A stretch of DNA of 64,000 nt, from positions 7,032-71,031 of the forward strand of contig CAZOPH010000002.1 of assembly GCA_964581635.1 (NCBI GenBank), given 5' to 3'. A program made the translations under genes and the position numbers. The stretch is from an uncultured Smithella sp. (GTDB lineage Bacteria; Desulfobacterota; Syntrophia; Syntrophales; Smithellaceae). The notes beneath the pieces are model-generated. The model worked only from the letters and a program-made list of their open reading frames with translations. It made no database searches and was not told the origin of the DNA. Each line of letters opens with the position of its first letter. The stretch's first letter is position 1. Positions 1-35,865 of this stretch are shown one piece after another.

Positions 1-1701
1 TTCACGAATAGACGACGTCCCCAGAATCATCGACACCGTGCGGTCCATGCCCAGCGCCAGTCCCCCGTGCGGCGGCGCGCCGTAGTCAAAGGCTCGCAGG
101 AAGAAGCCGAACTTTTCTTTCATGTCTTCTTCGGAAAGCCCCAGCGCCGCGAAGATTTTTCGCTGGAGATCGCGGTTGTTGATGCGGATGCTGCCTCCGC
201 CCAGCTCTTCGCCATTCATGACCAGGTCGTAGGCGCGCGAATGCAGACCGAGAAGCTCTTCAACGTTTTTCGGGTCGAAATTTGTGTGTTCCGGCGCGGT
301 GAAGGGATGGTGGCTTGAGGTTACGCCGCCTTCCTCCGTCGCTTCAAACAGAGGAAACTCTGTAATCCAGACCGGATAAAAACTGTTTTCGGGGATGAGC
401 TCCAGACGATGGGCCAGATGCAGCCTAAGTTGCCCCAGCGCAGAGACAACCGTCGCATAAGACGGATCGGCCACCATGATCAGGACGTCGCCGTCGGCCA
501 CGTCGAAGCGTTTTTTGAGTTCGTCAAGTTCCGCCGCGCTGAAAAACTGCACGATATTGGATTCAAGCTTTCCGCCTTCGGCGCGCATCCAGGTCATTCC
601 CTTGGCGCCAAATGACGGCGCAATTTCTTTCGCGTATTCGTTTTGCAGGACGTTTTTGCTTAAGTGTTCGGATTGTCCTTTGATGTTGATCCCTTTGATA
701 CAGCCGCCGCGCTTCAGGATCTGGCGGAAAATGGAATAATTTGTGGACGCAAATACATCCGTGACATCGACAAAGCGCAGGCCGAAGCGCAGGTCGGGAC
801 GGTCCGAACCGGTCGTATCCATCGCTTCGGTGTAGGTCATGCGCGGAAAAGGTCGGGCAAGCGTTATGCCGCCGACTGCAAACATGTTCACCGTGAGCTC
901 CTCGATAAGATTGTAGAGAAATTCCTCATCGATGAAAGACGCTTCAATGTCAAGCTGCGTGAATTCCGGCTGGCGGTTGGGGCGCAAGTCTTCATCGCGG
1001 AAACAGCGCGCCAGCTGAAAATAGCGCTCCAGGCCGCCGATCATCATCAGCTGTTTGAAAAGCTGCGGCGATTGCGGCAGGGCGTAAAAGTTTCCCGGAT
1101 GCACGCGGCTGGGGACCAAGTAGTCGCGCGCGCCTTCGGGCGTGCTCATCGTGAGCACCGGTGTTTCCACCTCCACAAAGCCCCGCGCGTCGAGAAATTC
1201 GCGCACGCACTGAAAAATTTTGTGACGCAGGAGCAGATTGTTTTGCATGGCCGCGCGGCGGATGTCCAGATAGCGATACTCCATTCGCAACTCCTCGGCA
1301 ACGCTCTGTGCACCGGCGGTTTCCGCTCCGGCCACCATGGCCTTGTCGGAGATGACAAACGGCAACGGATCGGATTCGGCTAGAATCGTCAGATCAATCA
1401 CCGCCACTTCAAGCGCCCCGGTTTCGATATTGGGATTCTCCGTGCCGGGGAGTCTTTTTTTGACCTCGCCTGCAACAGTGATACAGTATTCCGCGCGCAG
1501 CGTCGAGGCCGCTTCACAAATGTTTGAGGGAGTCGTCTCCGGATTAAACACAATTTGCACAATGCCGCTGCGGTCGCGCAGGTGAACAAAAATCAAGCCG
1601 CCGTGATCGCGGTAGGCGTCCACCCAGCCGCAAAGCTGCACGCTATGGCCGATTTTAGCCTCCGTCAATTCGCCGCAAAAAATCCGTTGGGAAAAGTTCA
1701 T
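1..1701 (-). CDS. aspS: Aspartyl-tRNA synthetase, second copy. Bacterial type, high GC. Partial: the C-terminal end runs off the left edge of the window.
   Basis: Manual translation of the minus strand from ATG (complement of 1699-1701) gives 567 codons with no stop down to nt 1. It begins MNFSQRIFCGELTEAKIGHSVQLCGWVDAYRDHGGLIFVHLRDRSG. It carries class-II motifs FRDEDLRPNRQPEFTQLD and [14 protein letters not shown]. It aligns along its length with the aspS product at 1987-3759. It is missing from the ORF track only because no stop codon lies inside the window. Confidence 0.9.
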   Translation of the reverse strand, partial: MNFSQRIFCGELTEAKIGHSVQLCGWVDAYRDHGGLIFVHLRDRSGIVQIVFNPETTPSNICEAASTLRAEYCITVAGEVKKRLPGTENPNIETGALEVAVIDLTILAESDPLPFVISDKAMVAGAETAGAQSVAEELRMEYRYLDIRRAAMQNNLLLRHKIFQCVREFLDARGFVEVETPVLTMSTPEGARDYLVPSRVHPGNFYALPQSPQLFKQLMMIGGLERYFQLARCFRDEDLRPNRQPEFTQLDIEASFIDEEFLYNLIEELTVNMFAVGGITLARPFPRMTYTEAMDTTGSDRPDLRFGLRFVDVTDVFASTNYSIFRQILKRGGCIKGINIKGQSEHLSKNVLQNEYAKEIAPSFGAKGMTWMRAEGGKLESNIVQFFSAAELDELKKRFDVADGDVLIMVADPSYATVVSALGQLRLHLAHRLELIPENSFYPVWITEFPLFEATEEGGVTSSHHPFTAPEHTNFDPKNVEELLGLHSRAYDLVMNGEELGGGSIRINNRDLQRKIFAALGLSEEDMKEKFGFFLRAFDYGAPPHGGLALGMDRTVSMILGTSSIRE

Positions 1702-1918
1702 GGAATCTGCCCTTTCTGAAAAAAAGTGAACAACAAAATTGTTCCTATAACAAAATTGTACGGCGGAGCGTATCAAAACTGTTCTCAAGTTTCAAGAATT
1801 TAAGAAGAAAAAGACATGAAAAAGATTATGAAATGTTAAACGGGTTGTGTAGTCATCGATCATTCAATTTCAGATTGCCATTGCAATCATGCTGATGGAG
1901 TTGATAATCCGTCGCATG

Positions 1919-1961
1919 AATAAAAAACGGGAAAGCCGGCTTATATACCGGCCTTCCCGTT
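1919..1961 (-). terminator. Rho-independent terminator downstream of aspS (1987-3759)
   Basis: A 14-bp stem with one mismatch (1926-1939 pairs with 1948-1961) and an 8-nt loop (cttatata). Read on the minus strand, a U-rich tract (TTTTTTATT) follows. It lies 26 nt after the aspS stop. Confidence 0.75.
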
Positions 1962-1986
1962 CATTGGTTAATTATTGTGGGGGGGG

Positions 1987-3759
1987 TTAAACAATCTTCA
2001 ACGACAACTCCATCAACTGCTCGATGCTAACCTTGGAAGGGGCATCGGACATGAGATCCGACGCTTTCTGAGTTTTCGGGAAAGCAATGACGTCGCGAAT
2101 CGATTCCGCTTTGGTCATGATCATGGTGAGCCGGTCCAGCCCAAAGGCTAGTCCTCCGTGAGGAGGTGCGCCAAATTCCAGGGCATCCAGCAGAAAGCCG
2201 AATTTCAACCTGGCGTCGTCTTCACTCAAACCCAATGCACTGAAAACCTGTGATTGCATATCCTTGCGATGGATACGAATGCTGCCGCCGCCGATTTCCG
2301 AGCCATTCAGCACCAGATCGTAAGCTTTCGCTCTCACTTTTCCCGGATCAGTCGTCATAAGCGGCAGATCTTCAATAAACGGTGATGTGAATGGATGATG
2401 TGTGGACATGAATCGTTTTTCGGTCTCCGAATATTCCATCAACGGAAATTCCGTGACCCAGGTGAAGGCCAGTGTGTCAGGATCAATCAGATTGAGTTTC
2501 TTGCCCAAATTCAGGCGGAGGTTGCCCAAAGCGTCATGAACAACTTTCGGTACATCCGCTACAAAAAAGATAATGTCTCCTTCTTTCGCATCCATAGCCT
2601 GTGTAATGCCAGCCACTTCTTCAGGCTTAAGGAATTTAAAGATGGGTGATGTCCAGTCGGCGGCATTGACTTTCGCCCAGGCCAGTCCCTTTGCGCCGTA
2701 AATAGCCACAATATCCGCCAAACCGTCTAGGTCTTTGCGGGAAAGTGCGGGGTTCTTCTCGGCTTTAATGGCTTTAATGACACCGCCGGTTGCCGCCACT
2801 TCCATAAACAGCTTGAAGCCGGAATTTTTCACAATAGCAGTGAGATCTACAATTTCCATTCCAAAACGCACGTCGGGGTTATCTTTGCCGTAACGGCTGA
2901 TGGCGTGGGCATAGGTTATTCTGGGTAAGGGAAGCGTCAGATCTTTGTTCAGGCAGGCCTTAAAAATGGCTTTCATCAGGCCTTCCATCATCTGCATAAT
3001 ATCTTCTTCGGAGATGAACGACATCTCTACGTCAATCTGCGTGAATTCCGGCTGACGGTCCGCACGCAAATCTTCGTCGCGAAAACATTTTGCAATTTGA
3101 AAATAACGGTCAAACCCGGAGACCATCAAGAGTTGTTTGAAGATTTGCGGCGACTGCGGCAAGGCGTAGAAAGTTCCCTTGTTGACACGGCTGGGGACAA
3201 GGTAATCGCGGGCGCCTTCCGGGGTGCTTTTGCCCAGAAACGGCGTTTCAACTTCGATAAAGCCATTATCGTTAAAGTACTGACGTGTGGCTATAGCCAG
3301 TTTGCTGCGCAGGAAAAGGTTCTTTTGAATGGCCGGACGGCGCAAATCCAGATAACGGTATTTGAGACGGACGTTTTCGGAAATGTCTTCTTCATCAAAA
3401 GAGAAGGGTGGTGTTTTTGATTCGTTCAGAATCTCGAGATCGGAGATCATGACCTCGATCTGGCCCGTGGGGATGGCCGGGTTCTCCATGCCTTCCGGTC
3501 GTCTGCGCACCTTGCCTCTCACCGCCAGAACGTATTCACTCCGGATTTTATGTGCTTCGCCGTGAACGGTTTCGCCCGCTTCCGGATTGAAAACAATCTG
3601 GACAATTCCTTCGCGGTCGCGCAAATCGATGAAAATGACGCCACCGTGATCTCTGCGGCGTTGAGCCCAGCCGAACAAGATAACATCACTGCCGACATCG
3701 GCTACACTGACATTTCCGCAATAATGCGTTCTTTTGTCTTTTGTAATGAATTGGCTCAC
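1987..3759 (-). CDS. aspS: Aspartyl-tRNA synthetase (bacterial type, 590 aa)
   Basis: Full-length ORF. Motifs: [15 protein letters not shown] (OB-fold N-domain), [18 protein letters not shown] (motif 2), [15 protein letters not shown] (motif 3). It starts 7 nt downstream of the hisS stop, the classic hisS-aspS arrangement. Confidence 0.97.
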
Positions 3760-3766
3760 AAAACAT

Positions 3767-5029
3767 TTACCTCTCTTTAAAAATATTCTTCACCGCCTCC
3801 AGGAGATTCTCAAGGGGCAGGCTTTGCTGATTTTTAGTGCTCATATTCCGTAACTCGGCGTGATTCTCGGCTATTTCTTTATCTCCGAAAATCAATGTAT
3901 AAGAACTATTTAATTTATCTGCGCGCTTCATCTGGCTTTTCAGACTTTTATCAGAATAATCCATTGCCGCGCAAATCCCGGAGCGACGTAATTCCTGGGT
4001 CAAACCGAAAGCAATTTTCTGCGCATGCGCGCCTAAAGCGGCAATATATATATCTGTTTTATAATGGTTTTTATTATCCGGCGTCAGGCAGGCGATTAGT
4101 CTCTCTATACCGATGCCGAAGCCGATCCCTGGAACTTCTGGACCGCCCAGAAAACTGACCAGACCGTCATAACGACCGCCACCCGCCAGAGAATTCTGTG
4201 CTCCCAACGCTCCGGATTTCACTTCAAAGGTCGTTTTCGTGTAGTAATCGAGGCCGCGCACCATTTGAGGATTGATTTCATAGGCCAGGTTCAAATCATT
4301 GAGATAACTTTTAACTGCAGAAAAATGGTCCGAGCATTCTGTACAGAGAAAATTTAATATGCGAGGAGCATCGGCAATGACCGAACCGCAGGTTTCCACT
4401 TTGCAATCAAAGACGCGTAACGGGTTTGTATGAATACGTCTTTGACAATCAGGACAGAGAGCACTTTCCGATCCTTTTAGAAAATCAACAACAGCTTGGG
4501 AAAAAACCGGGCGACAAGCTTTGCAGCCCAGCGAATTAATTTCCAGCGATAACTTTTCGACGCCTGCTGTTTGAAGGAAATGCATCAGCATAAAAATAAC
4601 TTCCGCATCAGAGGCCGGTTTATCATCTCCAAATAATTCCACGTCAATCTGGTGAAATTGCCGGAAACGGCCTTTTTGCGGTCTTTCCCGGCGGAACATC
4701 GGACCCATGGTGTAAAGCTTGGCAATCGGATCAGACACCAGGAGGTTATGCTCAATATAAGCACGGATAACGGATGCCGTGGCTTCCGGACGCAAAGTCA
4801 GCATTTCGTCATCTCGGTCACGGAACGTGTACATTTCCTTTTCAACGATATCCGTAGTTTCACCAATACTGCGTTGGAATAAAACCGTTTTTTCCATGAT
4901 CGGTACACGAATTTCACAAAAACCGAAACATTTAAAAATTTTGCGGGCGGTTAATTCCACCTGATGCCAGAGTGGGGAATCTTTAGGTAAAATATCTTTT
5001 ATACCCTTGATGGCTGTAATTTTTTCCAT
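3767..5029 (-). CDS. hisS: Histidyl-tRNA synthetase
   Basis: The ORF runs to 5083 (TTG), but the family N-terminus [15 protein letters not shown] starts at the ATG at 5029. Motifs: [43 protein letters not shown]. Confidence 0.95.
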
Positions 5030-5216
5030 AGATGTATCCCAAATAAAGTGGTGTTTTCTAGCATATCGTCGGGGTGTTCGCAATCAAATATTATTGATGG
5101 AAAGGATGATAATAGGCAATTTAAGGCACATTTTATCATTTTTTGTGAAGGGAACCGTCAACGGAGATGGGGAATGCGAAATCTGCCTTGGGTGTAATAA
5201 ATGACTTAATCCAGGG

Positions 5217-16627: not shown

Positions 16628-18709
16628 TCATTCTTCCGCCTCTTTTTTCGATTCCGCTATAATTTTGTCCGCAATGTAAGAGGGGACTTCTTCATAATGC
16701 GAATCCGTGTAGGTGAAGTTGCCTCGGCCGCTGGTCATGGAGCGCAGATCGGGAGCATACTTTAATATTTCCGCCAGAGGTACCTGACCTTTAATAACCT
16801 GATTGGTTCCATTGGTGTCCATACCCAGAACGCGTCCTCGGCGACTGTTAAGATCGCCGATGACGTCGCCCATGTATTCGTCAGGGACTTCGATGGCAAT
16901 ATTCACAATGGGTTCCAGCAGGATCGGCTGACAGTCCATAACGCCTTTTTGAAAGGCCATGGAGCCGGCGATTTTAAAGGCCATTTCTGATGAATCTACG
17001 GTATGATAAGAGCCAAAAACCAGAGATATTCTGAAATCCACAACCGGATAACCGGCGATAACGCCTTTGGCCGCAGCTTCCTGAATACCTTTATCTACGG
17101 CTGGGCGGTATTGTCCTGGAATAACCCCGCCGACAATTTTATCCAGAAATTCATACCCTGTGCCACGCGGCAACGGTTCAATATCGATCGTACAATCGCC
17201 AAACTGGCCGCGTCCACCGGACTGTTTCTTGTATCGGCCCTGAACGTTGGTTTTCCCTTTAATAGTTTCCAGATAGGGGACTTTCGGTGTGTTCAGGTTG
17301 ACTTCGACGCCGAATTTTCTTTTCATCTTTTCTACATTGACTTCAATATGCACCTGGCCCATCCCGGAGAGGATCATTTCCTTGGTCTGGACATTACGGG
17401 AAAAGACGATGGTCGGATCTTCTTCCGTAAGACGGTGAATGGAGGAGGCGATCTTGTCTTCATCGCCTCTGGATTTAGGTTCGACCGCAAAAGACATAAT
17501 CGGCGGCGGAACCGCAACTTTTTCAAAGATAATGGGGGTTTTTTCGTTGCAGAGCGTATCACCGGTGACGGTTTCCTTCAGTTTGGCGACACCGGCTATG
17601 TCACCGGGAATGAGCACTTCCGCCTGTTTCTGGTTTTTACCTTCCAGAAAGAAAATATGTCCAAATTTCTCCGTGATTTTTTTCGAAGAGTTATAAACGG
17701 CCGAATCGGAATTGAGTTTACCTGAATAGACCCGAAACAATGTCAGCCTGCCCGCGTAGGGATCGGCAATCGTTTTGAAAACGATCGCAGAAAAAGGAGC
17801 ATCTTCTGAAGGCTGCCTTTCTTCAACACTGTCCGTTCCCGGCTTTTTGCCTTTAACCGGTCCACGGTCAACGGGTGAAGCGAAAGAACTGACAGCGATG
17901 TCCATCAATAGCGTTGCGCCAATACCTTTAAGGGCTGACCCGCAAATGACGGGAATAATGCTTCCGGTTGTCACGCCTTTTCTCAAGCCGGACTTAAGTT
18001 CCTCGGCGGAAAGCTCGCCGGATTCCAAGTATTTATTCATCAGTTCATCGTCGGCTTCCGCGATGTCTTCGACCATGGAACTATGCAGCATGCTGGCCTC
18101 ATCCATCAAGTCAGCGGGAATGTCAGACGCCTTGCCAACGCCTTTGTTGTCGGTAAAAGTAAAAGCCTTCATGGCAATCAAATCAATAATGCCTTGAAAT
18201 TTATCTTCTGCTCCGATGGGCATACAGATGGGGGTTGTTTTCTTCTTGAGTTTTGTTTTGATGCTTTCCAAAACTTTGTTGAAATCCGCTCTTTCACGGT
18301 CCATCCGATTGATGAAAATCATGCGGGGAAGGGAATATTCATCGGCTAGTTCCCAGACTTTTTGTGTCTGAAACTCAACACCGCCGACGGAATCGATAAC
18401 CACAACTGCATTATCCACGATGCTCAGAGAGCATTTAATATCAAAGGTAAAGTTAGAGTCGCCCGGCGTATCCACAATATTAATTTTATGTTTATCCCAT
18501 TCGACAAAATTGGCCGCCGATGAGATTGAAACATGTTTCTTTTGTTCTTCCGGTTCGTAGTCCATGGTGGACGAGCCGTCATCCACACGACCCAGCCGTT
18601 CATTTTTCCCGGAAACGAATAAAAGTGATTCACAAAGAGAGGTTTTACCTGTGCCGCCGTGACCGATTACAGCCATATTTCTAAGAGATTTGGGTTCGAA
18701 CTTTGCCAT
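16628..18709 (-). CDS. EF-G-like translational GTPase paralog with divergent G-domain motifs
   Basis: Five-domain EF-G length. Start ATG at 18709 with an AAGGAG SD 6 nt upstream (the track ORF opens at TTG 18724). G1 is GHGGTGKTS rather than AHIDAGKTT. G3 is DTPGDSNF rather than DTPGHVDF. G4 is NRMD. Confidence 0.9.
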   Translation of the reverse strand: MAKFEPKSLRNMAVIGHGGTGKTSLCESLLFVSGKNERLGRVDDGSSTMDYEPEEQKKHVSISSAANFVEWDKHKINIVDTPGDSNFTFDIKCSLSIVDNAVVVIDSVGGVEFQTQKVWELADEYSLPRMIFINRMDRERADFNKVLESIKTKLKKKTTPICMPIGAEDKFQGIIDLIAMKAFTFTDNKGVGKASDIPADLMDEASMLHSSMVEDIAEADDELMNKYLESGELSAEELKSGLRKGVTTGSIIPVICGSALKGIGATLLMDIAVSSFASPVDRGPVKGKKPGTDSVEERQPSEDAPFSAIVFKTIADPYAGRLTLFRVYSGKLNSDSAVYNSSKKITEKFGHIFFLEGKNQKQAEVLIPGDIAGVAKLKETVTGDTLCNEKTPIIFEKVAVPPPIMSFAVEPKSRGDEDKIASSIHRLTEEDPTIVFSRNVQTKEMILSGMGQVHIEVNVEKMKRKFGVEVNLNTPKVPYLETIKGKTNVQGRYKKQSGGRGQFGDCTIDIEPLPRGTGYEFLDKIVGGVIPGQYRPAVDKGIQEAAAKGVIAGYPVVDFRISLVFGSYHTVDSSEMAFKIAGSMAFQKGVMDCQPILLEPIVNIAIEVPDEYMGDVIGDLNSRRGRVLGMDTNGTNQVIKGQVPLAEILKYAPDLRSMTSGRGNFTYTDSHYEEVPSYIADKIIAESKKEAEE

Positions 18710-18888
18710 GAAAACTCCTTTCAATATCTCAACAAGATCCGCCGAAAGAACTGAAGAAACGGGTTCATTCAGAGTGCTGGGATGTTTAGCCTATCCCGTA
18801 ACTAAAATCAAGATAATTTTCACCTTCTGACGATTGAGGGGGCGTGTTTTGTCCTCTGATGCAAGCTTTCGAAAAGGCGGGCGGACTT

Positions 18889-23285: not shown

Positions 23286-25373
23286 ATGAAGTTCGACGAT
23301 CAGAAAATACGCAACATTGGAATCAGCGCGCACATCGATTCCGGTAAAACCACGCTTAGCGAAAGGATTCTTTTTTATACGAAAAGAATTCATGCCATCC
23401 ATGATGTGAAAGGCAAGGACGGTGTGGGCGCCACCATGGATTCCATGGAGCTGGAAAAAGAAAGAGGCATTACCATCGCTTCTGCGGCGACCTATTGCGA
23501 ATGGAAAGGGCATGAAATTAATATCATTGACACGCCCGGCCACGTCGATTTCACCATTGAAGTGGAGCGATCCCTGCGTGTTCTGGATGGGGCGATTCTT
23601 GTTTTGTGTTCAGTCGGTGGTGTTCAGTCGCAGTCCATTACTGTTGATCATCAGATGAAGCGCTACAAAGTTCCCTGCATTGCGTTTATCAATAAATGCG
23701 ACCGAAGTGGAGCCAATCCCTTTCGTGTAATCGAACAGCTTCGAACCAAGCTGGGCCACAACGCCGTCGCCATGCAGATTCCTATCGGACTGGAAACAGA
23801 TCTGCAGGGCGTGGTCGATCTGGTGGCCATGCAAGCGATGTATTTTGACGGCGATAATGGTGAAGATGTTCGCATCGAAGAGATTCCGCAAAATCTTCTG
23901 GTGGAAGCCAAAGCCAAAAGAGAAGAACTCATTGACGCCGCATCCATGTTTTCCGATGAACTGACGGAAGCCATTCTGGAAGAAAAAGAAATTTCTCCTG
24001 AACTGCTTTATACTGCTCTTCGCAAGGGAACGTTAAAAAGAGAACTCACACCGGTTTATATGGGGTCGGCCTATAAAAACAAAGCGGTCCAGCCTCTGCT
24101 CGACGGCGTGACGTATCTTCTGCCCACGCCATCCGAAGTGGAAAACATTGCCCTCGATATGGATAATAATGAAGAACCAGTTGTATTGACCAATGATTCA
24201 GAAAAACCAATTATCGCACTGGCGTTCAAACTGGAAGATGGTCAGTATGGCCAATTAACCTATATTCGGGTGTACGAAGGGACGGTGGAAAAAGGTTCAA
24301 CGATCGTCAATGTGCGCAACGGAAAAAAAGTTAAGGTTGGCCGCGTTGTTCGAATGCACGCGGATCAGATGGAAGAGGTCAATCAGCTGCGTGCCGGATA
24401 CATCGGAGCGTTATTCGGCATTGAATGTTCGTCAGGTGATACGTTTGTATCACCGGGCATCAACATGACCATGACCTCCATGTATGTGCCCAAGCCGGTT
24501 ATCTCGCTGGCCATTGTGCCGAAAGACAACAAGTCGCAAATGGCCATGTCTAAGGCCCTTAATCGATTTTCGAAGGAAGATCCGACATTCAAAACGTATG
24601 TCGATCAGGAAACCAACGAAACCATCATCGAAGGCATGGGCGAGTTGCATCTGGATATCTACGTGGAAAGAATGAAGCGCGAATACAGCGCGGAAGTGAC
24701 CACAGGCAATCCCCGTGTGGCTTACCGTGAAACCATTACACAGCGGGCGGATTTCAATTACACGCATAAAAAGCAAACCGGCGGTTCCGGACAGTTTGGA
24801 CGCGTCGCAGGTTATATCGAACCGATCAGTGATGCAGAATTTGTCTTTGAAAACAAAATATTCGGCGGTTCGATTCCCACGCAATATATTGCCGCCTGCG
24901 AAAAAGGTTTTAAGCAGAGCATGTCCAAAGGACCCAAATTGGAGTTTCCGATTACCGGCGTTAAAGTTGTCATCAACGACGGAGCATCGCATGCAGTGGA
25001 TTCTTCGGACATGGCTTTCCAAGCGGCTGCACGGGGCGCTTTCAAAGAAGCTTTTCTGAGAGCCAAGCCGGTTGTTCATGAGCCGATTATGAAAGTTGTT
25101 GTGGAATCGCCGACTGAATTTCAGGGGTCGGTGATGGGTTTACTCAATCAACGCCGTGGCATGATCATCGGTTCGCAGGACGAGGGTGTCATGTGCGTGA
25201 TTGAAGCTCAGGTGCCGTTGGGAGAAATGTTCGGTTTTTCGACCATCCTGCGTTCATCAACACAAGGCAAGGCACAGTTTACGATGGAGTTTGCCCTTTA
25301 TCGTCAGGTCCCGCAGTCGATTGCGGAAAAAATTGCCCTCGAAGTCGCTCAGAACAAGAAGACAGCCGCATAA
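23286..25373 (+). CDS. fusA: Elongation factor G (canonical GTPase motifs), located outside any str operon
   Basis: 695 aa. G1 [10 protein letters not shown]3 DTPGHVDF, G4 NKCD. AGGAGAGG SD upstream of the ATG. Confidence 0.95.
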
Positions 25374-32511: not shown

Positions 32512-35500
32512 ATGGAGCTAAAGATGGAAAACGCTCGGAAGCAATATCTTTTAAGACAACAAGAAGAAGATTCATCTTATGTAGGCCAAAGTTCACATAC
32601 TGATAAGCTAAAAGTCTTAAAAATACAGCGCACCTGTGTTCATGACGGCCCCGGAATCCGCACAACGATTTTCTTTCAGGGGTGCGGATTGAGGTGCTTG
32701 TGGTGCCAGAATCCGGAAGCGCTGTCATTCCATCCCGACCTAGCGCCAGACAGGGATTATTCGATTTCCGACATAATCGAACTTGTTTTGAGAGACAAGG
32801 ATTATTACTACAAAACAAACGGCGGGGTGACCCTGAGCGGCGGCGATCCTTTATTCCAGGACACGGATAGCCTGATGCCTTTACTGGAATCGTTAACGAA
32901 AGAGAACATACATGTGGCCGTTGAAACTTCCCTTCACGCACCTTGGGGAAATGTAGAGAAATTGGCGCCTTACGTAGATCTGTTTCTTGTTGACTTGAAG
33001 ATTGTCGGTGATGACGGCCTCCATAAGAAGTACACCAAGCAGGACAGCAAACTTATCCAAGATAATATAGAGAAACTGATTGCTTTAAACGCCAAGGTTA
33101 AATTCCGCATGGTGATGGTGCCGGGTTACAACGATAGAGAAAGCAATATTAAAGCGACTGCGGATTTCTTGAAGTCTGTCCATCACAACTCCATCGAGCT
33201 GCTGAAATACAACAACATGTATGAAGAGCAAGCCAGGCGTCTCGGATTGGTAACACAATCGTTGAATATCACAAATGACCAAAGTCTTACCTCTGTAAAA
33301 AAAGCCGTTGAATTATTTGAATATCTTGTCATCAAAGCCGAGTGTTATGATCTGGATGCTTCCAGACACAAAGCCGTTTTTCCCAAGCGCGTTTATGACA
33401 TACAAAACGCCATCAGAGAAAGTGGCAGGGGTCTCTGTTTTGAAGTATCCAGACTGAAGACAGATTACTACAAGAAGAATGGTTTTGAAAAACCGAACCC
33501 GATTCACAGAGCGGAACGTCTGTCTTATGTTCTGGCCAACAAAAGTGTTGTCATCTATCCTCAGGAACTGCTTGTCGGCAATTTCACCGCCAAGAGATGC
33601 GCTGGTCAAATATGGGAAGAGCACTATGGCGCTCTCTTTGCTTCGATTCTCCATCAGATCCATCGCCAGAAACCGGTTCCATTCCAGTGTTCCTGGGAGG
33701 ACAGACTCAACTTCTTTTATAGAACACTTCCTTTCTGGATGAGACACTGCCTTTTAATGAAGGTAAATAACTCCATTTCCAAGTTTATATCAGCTATTGC
33801 ACGCTCTTCCGAGAACGTTGCGGGATTCAATAATAACATGGCCGCAATCGCTCATTTTAACGTCAACTTCGATCGCATGCTTCAGTTGGGAACCACAGGA
33901 ATCATAAAAGAGATTGAAATCGCGCGAAAAGGAAAGCCTGGCATTAGCCAGGCCTTCTACGAGGGAGCAATCATCGGCCTCAAGGCTTTGGAAACGTTTG
34001 CCGCACGTTACGCCGACAGCCTGAAAAAGCTGAGCCGGGAAGAATCGGATACGGGACGCCGCCAAGAATTGGAAGAAATGGCTGCGATCTGCAGGCATGT
34101 TCCCAAATACCCTGCCCGCACGTTCCATGAAGCGCTCCAGAGTATGATGTTTTTGCAGATCGCGATTTGTACAGAATCCTATGAAAATGCGATATCCCAT
34201 GGACGCCTCGATCAGGTATTATATCCCTACTATAAAAAGGATAAAGAGGCCGGTGTCATTGATTACGATAAGGCGAAAGAACTGCTGGCCTTATATATTC
34301 TCAAAATGGACGAAGCCATCCTGGTCAATGATGGCGATACCTATCTGAGAATCGGAAGACTCTTCGAAACGATGTCCACCGATCAGGCTGTAACAGCCGG
34401 AGGTCTTGGCAGAGACGGTAGAGATGCCACCAATGATGTTACTTATATGCTTCTCGATATTTGCGAACTGCAACCTTACGCCTGCAATATGGCAGCCAGA
34501 ATTCATAAAGACAGCCCTCCCGAATATCTGGATAGGCTTGCGGAGATATATATAAATGGCGCACCCATGCCTGCTTTGTATAATGATGAAATTTATCTGA
34601 AAACTTTGGCAAAGCATTACCCTGCCACCCCCGTAGAGGATGCTAGGAATTACGCGATAATCGGGTGCGTTGAACCAAATGTTTCGGATGATCATTTTGG
34701 TAATACCGACTGCGCCAATGTGAACGTTGCCTTGCCTTTCTTACAGGCCCTGAAAGGCGAAGAAGACGATCTGTGGAACGTCGGCCTGGTCGATCAACTG
34801 GAAAAAATGACCACGAAGTTCTTCGAATACAATTGCAGAAGAAACAATAAATATTCTCACTATGTTCTGGCAAAATATATGAACACCCGGAAACGTTTCA
34901 AGCGGAAGAGAGCCTCCACACCTAAGCCACCTGCGAACATGGATGAGTTGCTTCAACGCTTTCAGGTACGTTTGAATCATCTGATCAACGCCATCTTGGT
35001 CGATCACCAGAATATTGAAAAGGTGATTCGTGAAAACTTTACAACGCCCCTTTCATCAGCACTCTTTAAGGGTTGTATTGAAAGCGGAAAAGACCTGTGC
35101 GAAGGCGGCGCAACGATAAACAGCAGCGGCATTCAGGCGATTGGGATTACGGATGTTGCGGATTCGTTATTGGCCATTAACGAGGTGGTATATAAACAGA
35201 AGCGGTATTCAATTCATGACATCATCAACGCCATAGACAACAACTTCGAGGGGGAAGATTATCAGCAGATCAGATTGTCATTACTCGACGTTCCGAAATT
35301 TGGTCATGACGGTTCGTGTGAAGCAATCGCTTGGGTAAACAAAACATTGCAGATTTATGTGAACGCATTGAACTCGGTCGAGAACTGTCCTAGAGGCGGC
35401 ATATATACTGCTGGATATTACGCTTTGAATGTAAATGATGTTTACGGAAAGAAAACGCCTGCGTTGCCTTCAGGGAGATTGAGCGGCGTTTCTCTTGCTA

Positions 35501-35865
35501 ATAGTATTACGCCTCATTATGGAATGCAGACGACCGATTTATTGTCATCACTGAATGCTGTCGCCGATGTTGATTTTGCAACCTATGCTTCCAATGGCAC
35601 CACCGTTACGTTCACGGTTGACTCGGCGCTGTTCCAAGGTCCGGATGGAGTCAGAAACCTCTCAGGGATAATTAGGACATACTTTGACAAAGGCGGCATG
35701 CAGTTTCAGCCAAACGTAATCAACAGACAGATATTACTGGACGCATACGACCATCCGGGAAAATACCCGAATCTTCTGATTCGTGTTGCCGGTTACTGCT
35801 CATACTTCAATGAACTTTCGGATGATTTGAAAAAGATCATCATAAACAGAACCTGTTATTGTTAG
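32512..35865 (+). CDS. Fusion protein: glycyl-radical-enzyme activating enzyme (radical SAM, PflA type) at the N-terminus and a PFL2/glycerol-dehydratase-class glycyl radical enzyme at the C-terminus
   Basis: Single uninterrupted 1117-aa ORF. Activase part: VHDGPGIRTTIFFQGCGLRCLWCQNPE (CX3CX2C = C58/C62/C65, nt 32683-32706) and GGVTLSGGDPL. GRE part: thiyl loop IIGCVEPN (C719/E721, nt 34666-34674), CEGGATINSSG, PKFGHDG, and the C-terminal glycyl radical motif LIRVAGYCSYF (G1094, nt 35791-35793). Confidence 0.92.
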   Translation: MELKMENARKQYLLRQQEEDSSYVGQSSHTDKLKVLKIQRTCVHDGPGIRTTIFFQGCGLRCLWCQNPEALSFHPDLAPDRDYSISDIIELVLRDKDYYYKTNGGVTLSGGDPLFQDTDSLMPLLESLTKENIHVAVETSLHAPWGNVEKLAPYVDLFLVDLKIVGDDGLHKKYTKQDSKLIQDNIEKLIALNAKVKFRMVMVPGYNDRESNIKATADFLKSVHHNSIELLKYNNMYEEQARRLGLVTQSLNITNDQSLTSVKKAVELFEYLVIKAECYDLDASRHKAVFPKRVYDIQNAIRESGRGLCFEVSRLKTDYYKKNGFEKPNPIHRAERLSYVLANKSVVIYPQELLVGNFTAKRCAGQIWEEHYGALFASILHQIHRQKPVPFQCSWEDRLNFFYRTLPFWMRHCLLMKVNNSISKFISAIARSSENVAGFNNNMAAIAHFNVNFDRMLQLGTTGIIKEIEIARKGKPGISQAFYEGAIIGLKALETFAARYADSLKKLSREESDTGRRQELEEMAAICRHVPKYPARTFHEALQSMMFLQIAICTESYENAISHGRLDQVLYPYYKKDKEAGVIDYDKAKELLALYILKMDEAILVNDGDTYLRIGRLFETMSTDQAVTAGGLGRDGRDATNDVTYMLLDICELQPYACNMAARIHKDSPPEYLDRLAEIYINGAPMPALYNDEIYLKTLAKHYPATPVEDARNYAIIGCVEPNVSDDHFGNTDCANVNVALPFLQALKGEEDDLWNVGLVDQLEKMTTKFFEYNCRRNNKYSHYVLAKYMNTRKRFKRKRASTPKPPANMDELLQRFQVRLNHLINAILVDHQNIEKVIRENFTTPLSSALFKGCIESGKDLCEGGATINSSGIQAIGITDVADSLLAINEVVYKQKRYSIHDIINAIDNNFEGEDYQQIRLSLLDVPKFGHDGSCEAIAWVNKTLQIYVNALNSVENCPRGGIYTAGYYALNVNDVYGKKTPALPSGRLSGVSLANSITPHYGMQTTDLLSSLNAVADVDFATYASNGTTVTFTVDSALFQGPDGVRNLSGIIRTYFDKGGMQFQPNVINRQILLDAYDHPGKYPNLLIRVAGYCSYFNELSDDLKKIIINRTCYC

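Follow-up and report, generated by a model that had tools for sequence, protein, structure and literature searches.

We analysed a 64,000-nucleotide stretch of contig CAZOPH010000002.1 from an uncultured Smithella sp. (the window), at the left edge of which two genes for bacterial-type aspartyl-tRNA synthetases (AspRSs) stand one behind the other on the minus strand. One, aspS1, belongs to a hisS-aspS1 operon. The other, aspS2, runs off the window and is the 5′ part of a gene in which AspRS is fused to GatC; on longer contigs it is followed by a gatA-like gene and gatB, and we refer to these three genes as the cassette. Read from the left edge, the features of the locus are:

1..1701, minus strand: AspRS-GatC fusion gene, codons 1-567 of 706 (translation; 100% identical to protein P0001; NF009460 match)
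436..729, minus strand: GAD insertion domain of the fusion, residues 325-422 (Pfam PF02938), a hallmark of bacterial-type AspRS
1309..1344, minus strand: 12-residue hinge insertion of the fusion, residues 120-131, KAMVAGAETAGA (BLASTP gap ahead of EYRYLD)
1405..1641, minus strand: OB-fold anticodon-binding domain of the fusion, residues 21-99 (Pfam PF01336)
1702..1827, minus strand: conserved leader of 126 bp that abuts the start codon of the fusion gene on its upstream side (84% identity to its counterpart in the sister-species contig L005)
1925..1962, minus strand: intrinsic terminator of the hisS-aspS1 operon (16-pair stem with 9 G-C pairs, then a T-run)
1987..3759, minus strand: aspS1, an ordinary bacterial-type aspartate--tRNA ligase of 590 residues (NF001750 868 bits, TIGR00459 790 bits)
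3767..5029, minus strand: hisS, which codes for histidine--tRNA ligase and opens the hisS-aspS1 operon (TIGR00442 490 bits)

The aspS2 frame starts with an ATG at 1701 (MNFSQRIF...) and runs to position 1, its 567 codons free of stops, as the initial annotation of this stretch had read it; it is missing from the list of open reading frames (ORFs), as was also remarked there, and the lister leaves out ORFs that run off the window. What had been taken for an intact aspS that nothing but the window edge truncates is indeed open and bacterial-type (NF001750 710 bits, cut-off 443; TIGR00459 654 bits, cut-off 374), but it represents the 5′ 80% of a 706-codon fusion gene, and its best NCBIfam match is not a plain AspRS model but NF009460, "bifunctional AspRS/GatC". 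In the protein database the 706-residue P0001 is 100% identical to it across the window's 567 residues, passes both AspRS cut-offs at full length (NF001750 759 bits, TIGR00459 696 bits) and has relatives that are all 705-707 residues long. The full gene lies at L001:2665-4785, on an independent ENA assembly contig of the same species (coverage 18.7), where the order is hisS′-aspS1-fusion (706 residues)-amidase (398 residues)-gatB (477 residues), followed by uvrD on the other strand.

Within the window, the fusion comprises the anticodon-binding domain, the hinge, the GAD domain and most of the catalytic domain, whereas motif 3 is completed only past the left edge, where the linker and the GatC domain also fall. 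The class II catalytic core is recognized at residues 136-575 (PF00152), and its motifs are intact (QSPQ, FRDEDLRxxRQPEFTQ, HHPFT, GGGSIR and GGLALGxDR). The two AspRSs of the locus, estimated by eye to share about half their residues, are 46% identical across 562 residues by BLASTP, and the insertion of some 10 residues noticed before EYRYLD measures 12. It is found neither in aspS1 nor in most solved AspRSs (4rmf and 4wj3 are without it); T. thermophilus AspRS1 carries a shorter insertion at the same hinge position, and the fusion proteins of Syntrophus, Smithella and Desulfobacterales have it as well.

Along the NF009460 profile, P0001 aligns end to end (1310 bits; residues 1-706 on profile positions 18-723 of 723). 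The model's cut-off of 1379 bits was reached by none of the five members tested (1188-1351 bits: besides P0001, Syntrophus buswellii 1316, Smithella 1351, ORM2a 1316 and Desulfobacterales 1188), and it looks tuned to near-identical seeds. The GatC part occupies the last ~110 codons, beyond the window, and its C-terminal ~95 residues make up a divergent but complete GatC. A profile built from 23 such tails matches residues 5-95 of the 100-residue S. aureus GatC (2df4_C) with E=4e-4 and P. aeruginosa GatC with E=0.044, and 21 of the 23 tails match Pfam GatC (PF02686), the best at 1.7e-8. The AspRS core and the GatC tail both align to chains of 4WJ3. When 1.84 billion representative proteins were searched, a single further 50%-identity cluster, that of a Desulfobacterales relative, matched the fusion end to end; all other AspRSs in that search end near residue 598 and are at most 51% identical.

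The initial annotation had called for a phylogeny containing both AspRS copies. In our distance tree the fusion and aspS1 clades are separate and not sisters, so the second gene is not a recent duplicate of aspS1. This tree, in which an E. coli AspRS sequence serves as a landmark, and our fusion tree are neighbour-joining distance trees without support values, and we claim no deep branching order from them. The aspS1 homologues of Smithella and Smithellaceae are 84-89% identical to it, and its 90% cluster takes in Smithella sp. F21. Among the AspRSs nearest the fusion is P0242 (1029 residues, from a cluster labelled Bacillota), in which the AspRS part, residues 445-1017, is preceded by a 444-residue N-terminal extension; it is a further fusion that involves an AspRS.

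The second gene of the cassette encodes a 398-residue protein with an amidase domain (PF01425, 2.8e-45), and its best PDB matches are all GatA chains (3kfu_E, 3h0l_A, 3al0_A, 4wj3_A and 2df4_A, E~1e-37). Besides L001, it is present, for the window's species, on a 72,689-nucleotide NCBI contig that bears both AspRS proteins. Aligned with T. thermophilus and Aquifex GatA, this GatA-like protein shows two replacements, Gln for the Lys of AVKDNI and Glu for the Ser of GGS(V/I)RQP, and a loop of ~19 residues next to the signature is deleted. Across 82 GatA-like sequences the nucleophile Ser position is Glu in every one. At the catalytic Lys position 79 of them have Gln, the remaining three have Ser, Gly and His respectively, and none has Lys; the cis-Ser is present in 77 of the 82. 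The triad spacings in T. thermophilus GatA, 75 and 24 residues, fit the S. aureus numbering of Lys79, Ser154 and Ser178. In GatA, a Ser-cisSer-Lys triad hydrolyses amides, with Ser178 forming a covalent intermediate with glutamine (PMC2330236). The many invariant columns of the GatA-like family show that its members are not pseudogenes.

GatB, by comparison, is canonical (NF004012 570 bits, cut-off 338, with both PF02934 and PF02637 present); its gene is beyond the window and is carried by L001 and by the same 72,689-nucleotide contig. In the Desulfobacterales relative, gatB appears as two ORFs (L008:11141-12599; GatB_N of 272 residues and GatB_Yqey of 215), and the gatB of another locus, L070:8191-9482, also matches in two pieces; either a frameshift or a genuinely split GatB would account for both.

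We scanned one genome per GTDB species with peptides specific to the GatA-like protein, found 253 genomes with a relative, and compared the best 80 loci from these. The cassette is present in all relatives found, and in the 80 loci the order fusion core with in-frame GatC tail, gatA-like gene, gatB is kept wherever the contig is long enough. The Desulfobacterales relative, whose fusion protein is 63% identical to the window's, has the same three-gene order, and in most loci gatB starts 2-10 nucleotides after the gatA-like gene. Identities across the 80 loci range from 76 to 94% for the fusion core, 72 to 93% for GatB and 51 to 81% for the GatA-like protein, which thus evolves fastest.

The surroundings of the cassette are less constant. 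Its neighbours differ in Syntrophus buswellii and in most Smithella genomes, and adjacency to hisS-aspS is confined to the window's genus. In the sister species (L005 and L010) a greA/rnk-like gene of 138 residues lies between aspS1 and the fusion gene; the L005 fusion protein is 93% identical to the window's, and L005 also has an 88% identical hisS orthologue of 420 residues. The window's spacer corresponds to the two ends of the L005 interval, conserved at 72% and 84%, with ~810 bp absent (window 1827/1828; L005:9066-9874). That the cassette stands in tandem with aspS1 is an accident peculiar to the window's genus, in which this ~810-bp indel brought the two units to 285 bp from each other. 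In three other Smithella genomes, hisS-aspS1 lies downstream of gatB at a distance of 1-3 kb and on the opposite strand (L016:10619-13654, L018:12732-15189 and L035:7888-9882), the two units being still near each other but inverted with respect to the window.

A comparison of window 1-4364 with L001:1-4365 gave seven mismatches and one 1-bp indel over positions 1-3024, none of them within 1-1701, and differences at ~12% of positions (155 mismatches) over 3025-4364. This switch of identity inside aspS1 reflects either recent recombination, in which the cassette and the 3′ part of aspS1 moved between strains, or strain collapse by the assembler.

The aspS1 gene begins 7 nucleotides downstream of hisS on the same strand; the likely start of hisS is the ATG at 5029, and the ORF lister runs its frame on to a TTG at 5083. 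The strong terminator noticed between the two aspS genes is a hairpin with a 16-bp stem and a T-run (1962..1925 on the minus strand). Beyond it lies the leader of the fusion gene, with an AAAGGG ribosome-binding site upstream of the ATG; the leader presumably holds the cassette's own promoter and 5′ untranslated region. A scan of the spacer for sigma-70 elements gave no convincing minus-strand promoter, and an Rfam scan of spacer and leader gave sub-threshold matches on the terminator hairpin only, with no riboswitch and no T-box.

The spacer, 285 bp long (1702-1986), is AT-rich, as had been stated (G+C 0.382; whole window 0.451). The sharp contrast in base composition described between the two aspS genes holds. 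With a G+C content of 0.561 and a third-position value (GC3) of 0.677, aspS2 has the highest GC3 of the long ORFs in the window (the others span 0.43-0.60, and values above 0.60 otherwise occur only in two ORFs nested antisense in longer ones, at 0.615 and 0.652), but its G+C exceeds that of aspS1 by 6.4 points, less than hand counts of short samples had suggested (aspS1, 1987-3759: G+C 0.497, GC3 0.563; hisS: 0.445 and 0.431).

Whether the two AspRSs form a discriminating/non-discriminating pair, as had been suggested, was examined in the anticodon-binding domain. The OB domain of the fusion has the His of RDHGG and the Gly of LPG, and by alignment so does that of aspS1. The same residues occur in the non-discriminating (ND) enzymes of P. 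aeruginosa (4wj3) and Mycobacterium (4rmf and 5w25), whereas the discriminating T. thermophilus AspRS1 (6hhv) has Leu and a two-residue deletion at these positions. Bernard and colleagues are said to have found in 2006 that the His in RDHGG and the Gly in the (P/L)(E/P)G loop are determinants of tRNA-Asn recognition by the P. aeruginosa enzyme. Because both copies carry them, these markers neither separate aspS1 from aspS2 nor assign roles, and a discriminating/non-discriminating split is not seen in the sequences. The half of the suggestion that stands is the link to the indirect pathway of Asn-tRNA formation: the second AspRS is fused to GatC and stands ahead of the gatA-like gene and gatB. 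This also answers the advice to look further left of the window, where the gene continues into GatC and is followed by the two amidotransferase genes, but where the biosynthetic or mobile genes that had been looked for were not found.

Based on these observations, we propose, with a probability of about 0.78, that AspRS-GatC, the GatA-like protein and GatB constitute a covalently tethered asparagine (Asn-) transamidosome, possibly one that uses ammonia instead of glutamine. Given the terminator and the conserved leader, the fusion gene, the gatA-like gene and gatB would form a transcription unit of their own that starts just past the hisS-aspS1 operon. In the encoded fusion, a linker of ~15 residues joins a bacterial-type AspRS to a full-length GatC. 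The AspRS part is predicted to charge tRNA-Asn with aspartate, and the tethered GatC to keep the GatA-like protein and GatB beside it. GatC is required for the folding of GatA and its assembly with GatB (PMC2330236), and the strict linkage in the 80 loci suggests that the tethered GatC likewise binds the GatA-like protein and bridges it to GatB. The fusion would make the transamidosome permanent, probably with two GatC per AspRS dimer. Since two members of the GatA catalytic triad, the nucleophile Ser and the Lys, are missing from the GatA-like protein, the amide nitrogen would most likely come from free ammonia, not glutamine.

If a glutaminyl-tRNA synthetase (GlnRS) is present, the amidotransferase would serve asparagine only. 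Table S1 of PMC4206432 gives, for Syntrophus aciditrophicus, asnS 0, asnB 1, gatCAB 1 and glnS 1. A GlnRS-type gene (tRNA-synt_1c plus both C-terminal domains, 560 residues) lies at L006:5848-7530, 2.5 kb upstream of a Smithella cassette, which fits direct Gln-tRNA formation in the group. Within the window we found neither tRNA genes nor asnS.

Several points weigh against the tethered Asn-transamidosome. The GatC tail of the window's own species scores 14.7 bits on the Pfam GatC model, under its cut-off of 23. The mischarging of tRNA-Asn, the formation of the complex and the nature of the amide donor are all predictions drawn from sequence. A canonical gatCAB or an asnS elsewhere in the genome may make the cassette an accessory instead of the main route. 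The ND-type residues are found in aspS1 too, so that they do not show how the two AspRSs share the work. The Glu that is invariant at the nucleophile position could signify new chemistry rather than mere loss. Finally, S. aciditrophicus is entered with only one aspS in the survey of PMC4206432, at odds with two AspRS genes in its genus; that count either conflicts with the two-AspRS view or shows the limits of the survey.

A bolder version of the proposal, which we offer tentatively and would rate at somewhat below even odds, is that the cassette encodes a glutamine-independent, ammonia-using, tethered factory for Asn-tRNA that has spread among energy-limited anaerobes of ammonia-rich habitats. 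The GatA-like subunit would have turned structural, and its old active site, with Glu for Ser and Gln for Lys, might capture ammonium at the mouth of the GatB tunnel; the fusion would fix the stoichiometry and channel Asp-tRNA-Asn. The hosts would include Syntrophales, Desulfobacterales and apparently Actinomycetota, Chloroflexota and lineages of the Planctomycetota-Verrucomicrobiota-Chlamydiota (PVC) group, and they would save the ATP otherwise used to make donor glutamine.

The known transamidosomes are transient and tRNA-dependent, and GatA has always been taken to be a glutaminase; here, a fusion would make the complex permanent, and the glutaminase nucleophile is gone from all 82 sequences while the GatA subunit is retained. 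Should the complex indeed run on ammonia, it would represent the first GatCAB-type amidotransferase in nature that does without glutamine, and it would tie translation directly to the way in which syntrophic anaerobes manage nitrogen and energy. In their source annotation the fusion relatives are named plainly "aspartate--tRNA ligase", and the GatA-like orthologue of Syntrophus is an "amidase family protein" in RefSeq; with such labels, surveys of Asn-tRNA routes miscount these organisms.

The strongest of the other readings is that aspS2, or the cassette as a whole, is a recent xenolog from a donor of higher G+C content, not yet ameliorated and redundant in function. It concerns origin, not function, and is compatible with the tethered Asn-transamidosome; as stated, we consider it unlikely, although several of its predictions hold for the whole cassette. 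In GC3, the cassette stands at 0.61-0.68 and its neighbours at 0.43-0.56; the corresponding values in the sister species are 0.66-0.73 and 0.42-0.62. The G+C content of the cassette exceeds that of its flanks by about 11 points in the window's species and 12 in L010. Fourfold-degenerate sites differ less between the window's species and L005 within the cassette (0.25-0.33) than they do in comEC, hisS, aspS1 and uvrD (0.40-0.51). The different neighbourhoods in different lineages also favour mobility. In 60 genomes, however, cassette G+C tracks flank G+C (r 0.91, slope 0.71), which argues for long residence in most hosts; it lies above that of the flanks in 54 of the 60, by 4.4 points on average, with the largest excess in the window's lineage. 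Fourfold-site G+C in the cassette is 0.68-0.87, and its synonymous divergence is about half that of the flanking genes (L001:2665-7428 against L005:10001-14767); codon selection, slow mutation or recent exchange may underlie this slowness.

Contigs bearing the cassette (L031-L088) carry the labels Chloroflexota, Verrucomicrobiota, Acidobacteriota, Planctomycetota, Actinomycetota and others; these labels of metagenome-assembled genomes (MAGs) are the submitters' own, so that, apart from the one contig checked independently (L079), they may stand for real hosts or mislabelled bins. On L079, which is 420 kb long, the named relatives of the flanking RNase J are only Thermoleophilia and Coriobacteriia MAGs, and its best solved relative is a chain of 5a0t, which we take to be the Streptomyces enzyme; next to this actinobacterial-labelled flank, the fusion core is still 77% identical to the window's. 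In the fusion tree, which is star-like, small clades match the MAG labels. The flanks of the oddly labelled MAGs have synteny in common only within one label, the PVC-labelled loci are flanked by glycoside-hydrolase-type genes, and the flanks of L009 and L011 gave no orthologues in common with the window. The presence of the cassette on contigs of other phyla indicates horizontal spread.

Against a recent arrival in the window's lineage, the window copy groups with those of Smithella and Syntrophaceae, and the same site is occupied in the sister species. Judged as a genomic island, the cassette has an atypical composition; mobility genes, a tRNA target and border repeats were not detected, nor is it absent from relatives. 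Specifically, the flanks in the window, L001 and L005 revealed no integrase, transposase or tRNA gene. Moreover, a complete pathway with a peculiar GatA does not look redundant. The xenolog raised by the initial annotation therefore survives in its signals of composition, divergence and distribution, extended from aspS2 to the cassette, but not in its placement. The cassette is a real and widespread module, probably transferable, with a history of its own. Behind the compositional anomaly in the window's lineage may lie either an exchange between members of the family or an unusual slowness of change at synonymous sites.

We regard it as improbable, more so than a recent xenolog, that the cassette codes for a common glutamine-dependent GatCAB with a GatA that has simply diverged and, despite its substitutions, still supports glutaminase function in the complex, or that a canonical GatA is borrowed from elsewhere. 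The GatA-like protein retains the amidase fold match, the cis-Ser and many invariant positions, it is called GatA in IMG and in Prokka-style annotation, and a second gatA could lie elsewhere in the whole genomes; no canonical triad-bearing GatA was found in ~1.1 Mb of loci plus the window, a sample far too small for inference about whole genomes. This has to be set against the uniform Glu at the nucleophile position, the consistent absence of the Lys of a triad whose Ser carries the covalent intermediate, the lost loop and the faster evolution of this subunit than of the fusion core or GatB. Its score on the GatA equivalog model TIGR00132, 207.6 bits, is less than half the cut-off of 481, in line with the cautious RefSeq name.

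The initial annotation had also considered an inhibitor-resistant spare. In this reading, as we widen it, the AspRS or the whole route would guard against an aspartyl-adenylate mimic, a glutamine analogue or a transamidosome toxin. Duplicate synthetases are generally known as a self-resistance strategy (reviewed in PMC9437257), the cassette is a self-contained unit that seemingly passes from one lineage to another, and a GatA lacking the glutaminase site would be indifferent to inhibitors of that site. We nevertheless think it very improbable. Biosynthetic, export and immunity genes were not found in the window or in the neighbourhoods read, where the cassette is accompanied by hisS, aspS1, comEC, ndk, uvrD, adk and similar genes; the motifs that bind aspartate and ATP are those of a standard AspRS; and fusion to GatC with linkage to gatB is the organisation of a pathway, not of a replaced target.

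An assembly chimera joining the DNA of two organisms between nucleotides 1700 and 1990, a caution voiced at the outset that the composition step at the junction and the mosaic relation of the window to L001 might seem to favour, is hardly credible: L001 is colinear across the junction, where aspS2 matches throughout and the spacer shows a single mismatch, the point at which identity breaks down is away from it, inside aspS1 near 3025, the junction recurs in a different species (L005) with both spacer flanks conserved and one extra small gene between them, and hisS-aspS1 is found within 1-3 kb of the cassette in three further Smithella genomes.

Elsewhere in the window, two full-length EF-G paralogues of 698 and 695 residues are encoded within 7 kb of each other on opposite strands (16628-18724, minus strand, and 23286-25373, plus strand). 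In a single 1117-residue ORF at 32512-35865 on the plus strand, an N-terminus of the radical-SAM activase type (Radical_SAM, Fer4_12) is joined to a PFL-like glycyl-radical enzyme that has the Gly_radical motif; from its domains, we read it as an enzyme-activase fusion in a Smithellaceae genome.

Among known systems, the closest to the cassette is the database model NF009460 (PRK12820), which already describes the fusion, and the proteins of the window, Syntrophus, Smithella, ORM2a and Desulfobacterales have the same architecture from end to end; the model is silent on the GatA-like partner. Our literature search returned no paper on an AspRS-GatC fusion, on a GatA without the triad or on Asn-tRNA synthesis in Syntrophus or Smithella. 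A GatA-like protein that is not an ordinary amidase has reportedly been described in P. aeruginosa, where Tse8 is said to be an amidase-signature toxin linked to the transamidosome. Tse8, however, is reportedly secreted and disturbs the complex of another cell, whereas the GatA-like protein of the cassette shares an operon with GatB and the fusion, as their conserved partner.

There are precedents for the rewiring of such systems. M. smegmatis is described as having a gatC-gatA fusion polypeptide (PMC7541841), an example of fused amidotransferase subunits; yeast mitochondrial GatFAB (PMC4027206) is one of rewired subunits; and the Deinococcus GlnRS with its YqeY/GatB-tail domain (PMC1865053) is a synthetase bearing a domain of the indirect pathway. 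As these three sources present them, none of the cases involves an AspRS-GatC fusion or a GatA without the triad.

In T. thermophilus and D. radiodurans, as here, a housekeeping AspRS is accompanied by a second AspRS for tRNA-dependent asparagine formation (PMC2330236; D. radiodurans is entered with aspS=2 in PMC4206432). Those two organisms combine a discriminating AspRS1 with a non-discriminating AspRS2 and GatCAB. Their AspRS2, though, is archaeal-type, without the GAD domain, free-standing and encoded apart from gatCAB; in our case, both AspRSs are bacterial-type with GAD domains, both have the ND-type His and Gly, and the second is fused to GatC. With the Asn-transamidosomes of T. thermophilus and P. 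aeruginosa (PDB 3KFU and 4WJ3) the cassette has its components in common, namely an AspRS of the ND type, GatCAB and tRNA-Asn, and presumably the same logic, in which AspRS hands mischarged Asp-tRNA-Asn over to GatB with no intervening release (PMC2330236). No covalent bond holds those complexes together, they depend on tRNA, and their GatA is an active glutaminase, whereas here AspRS and GatC are one polypeptide and the GatA-like subunit is without the Ser and Lys. The pathway and the fusion model were thus already known; what is new is a strictly linked, undescribed non-glutaminase GatA, together with the signs of its horizontal spread.

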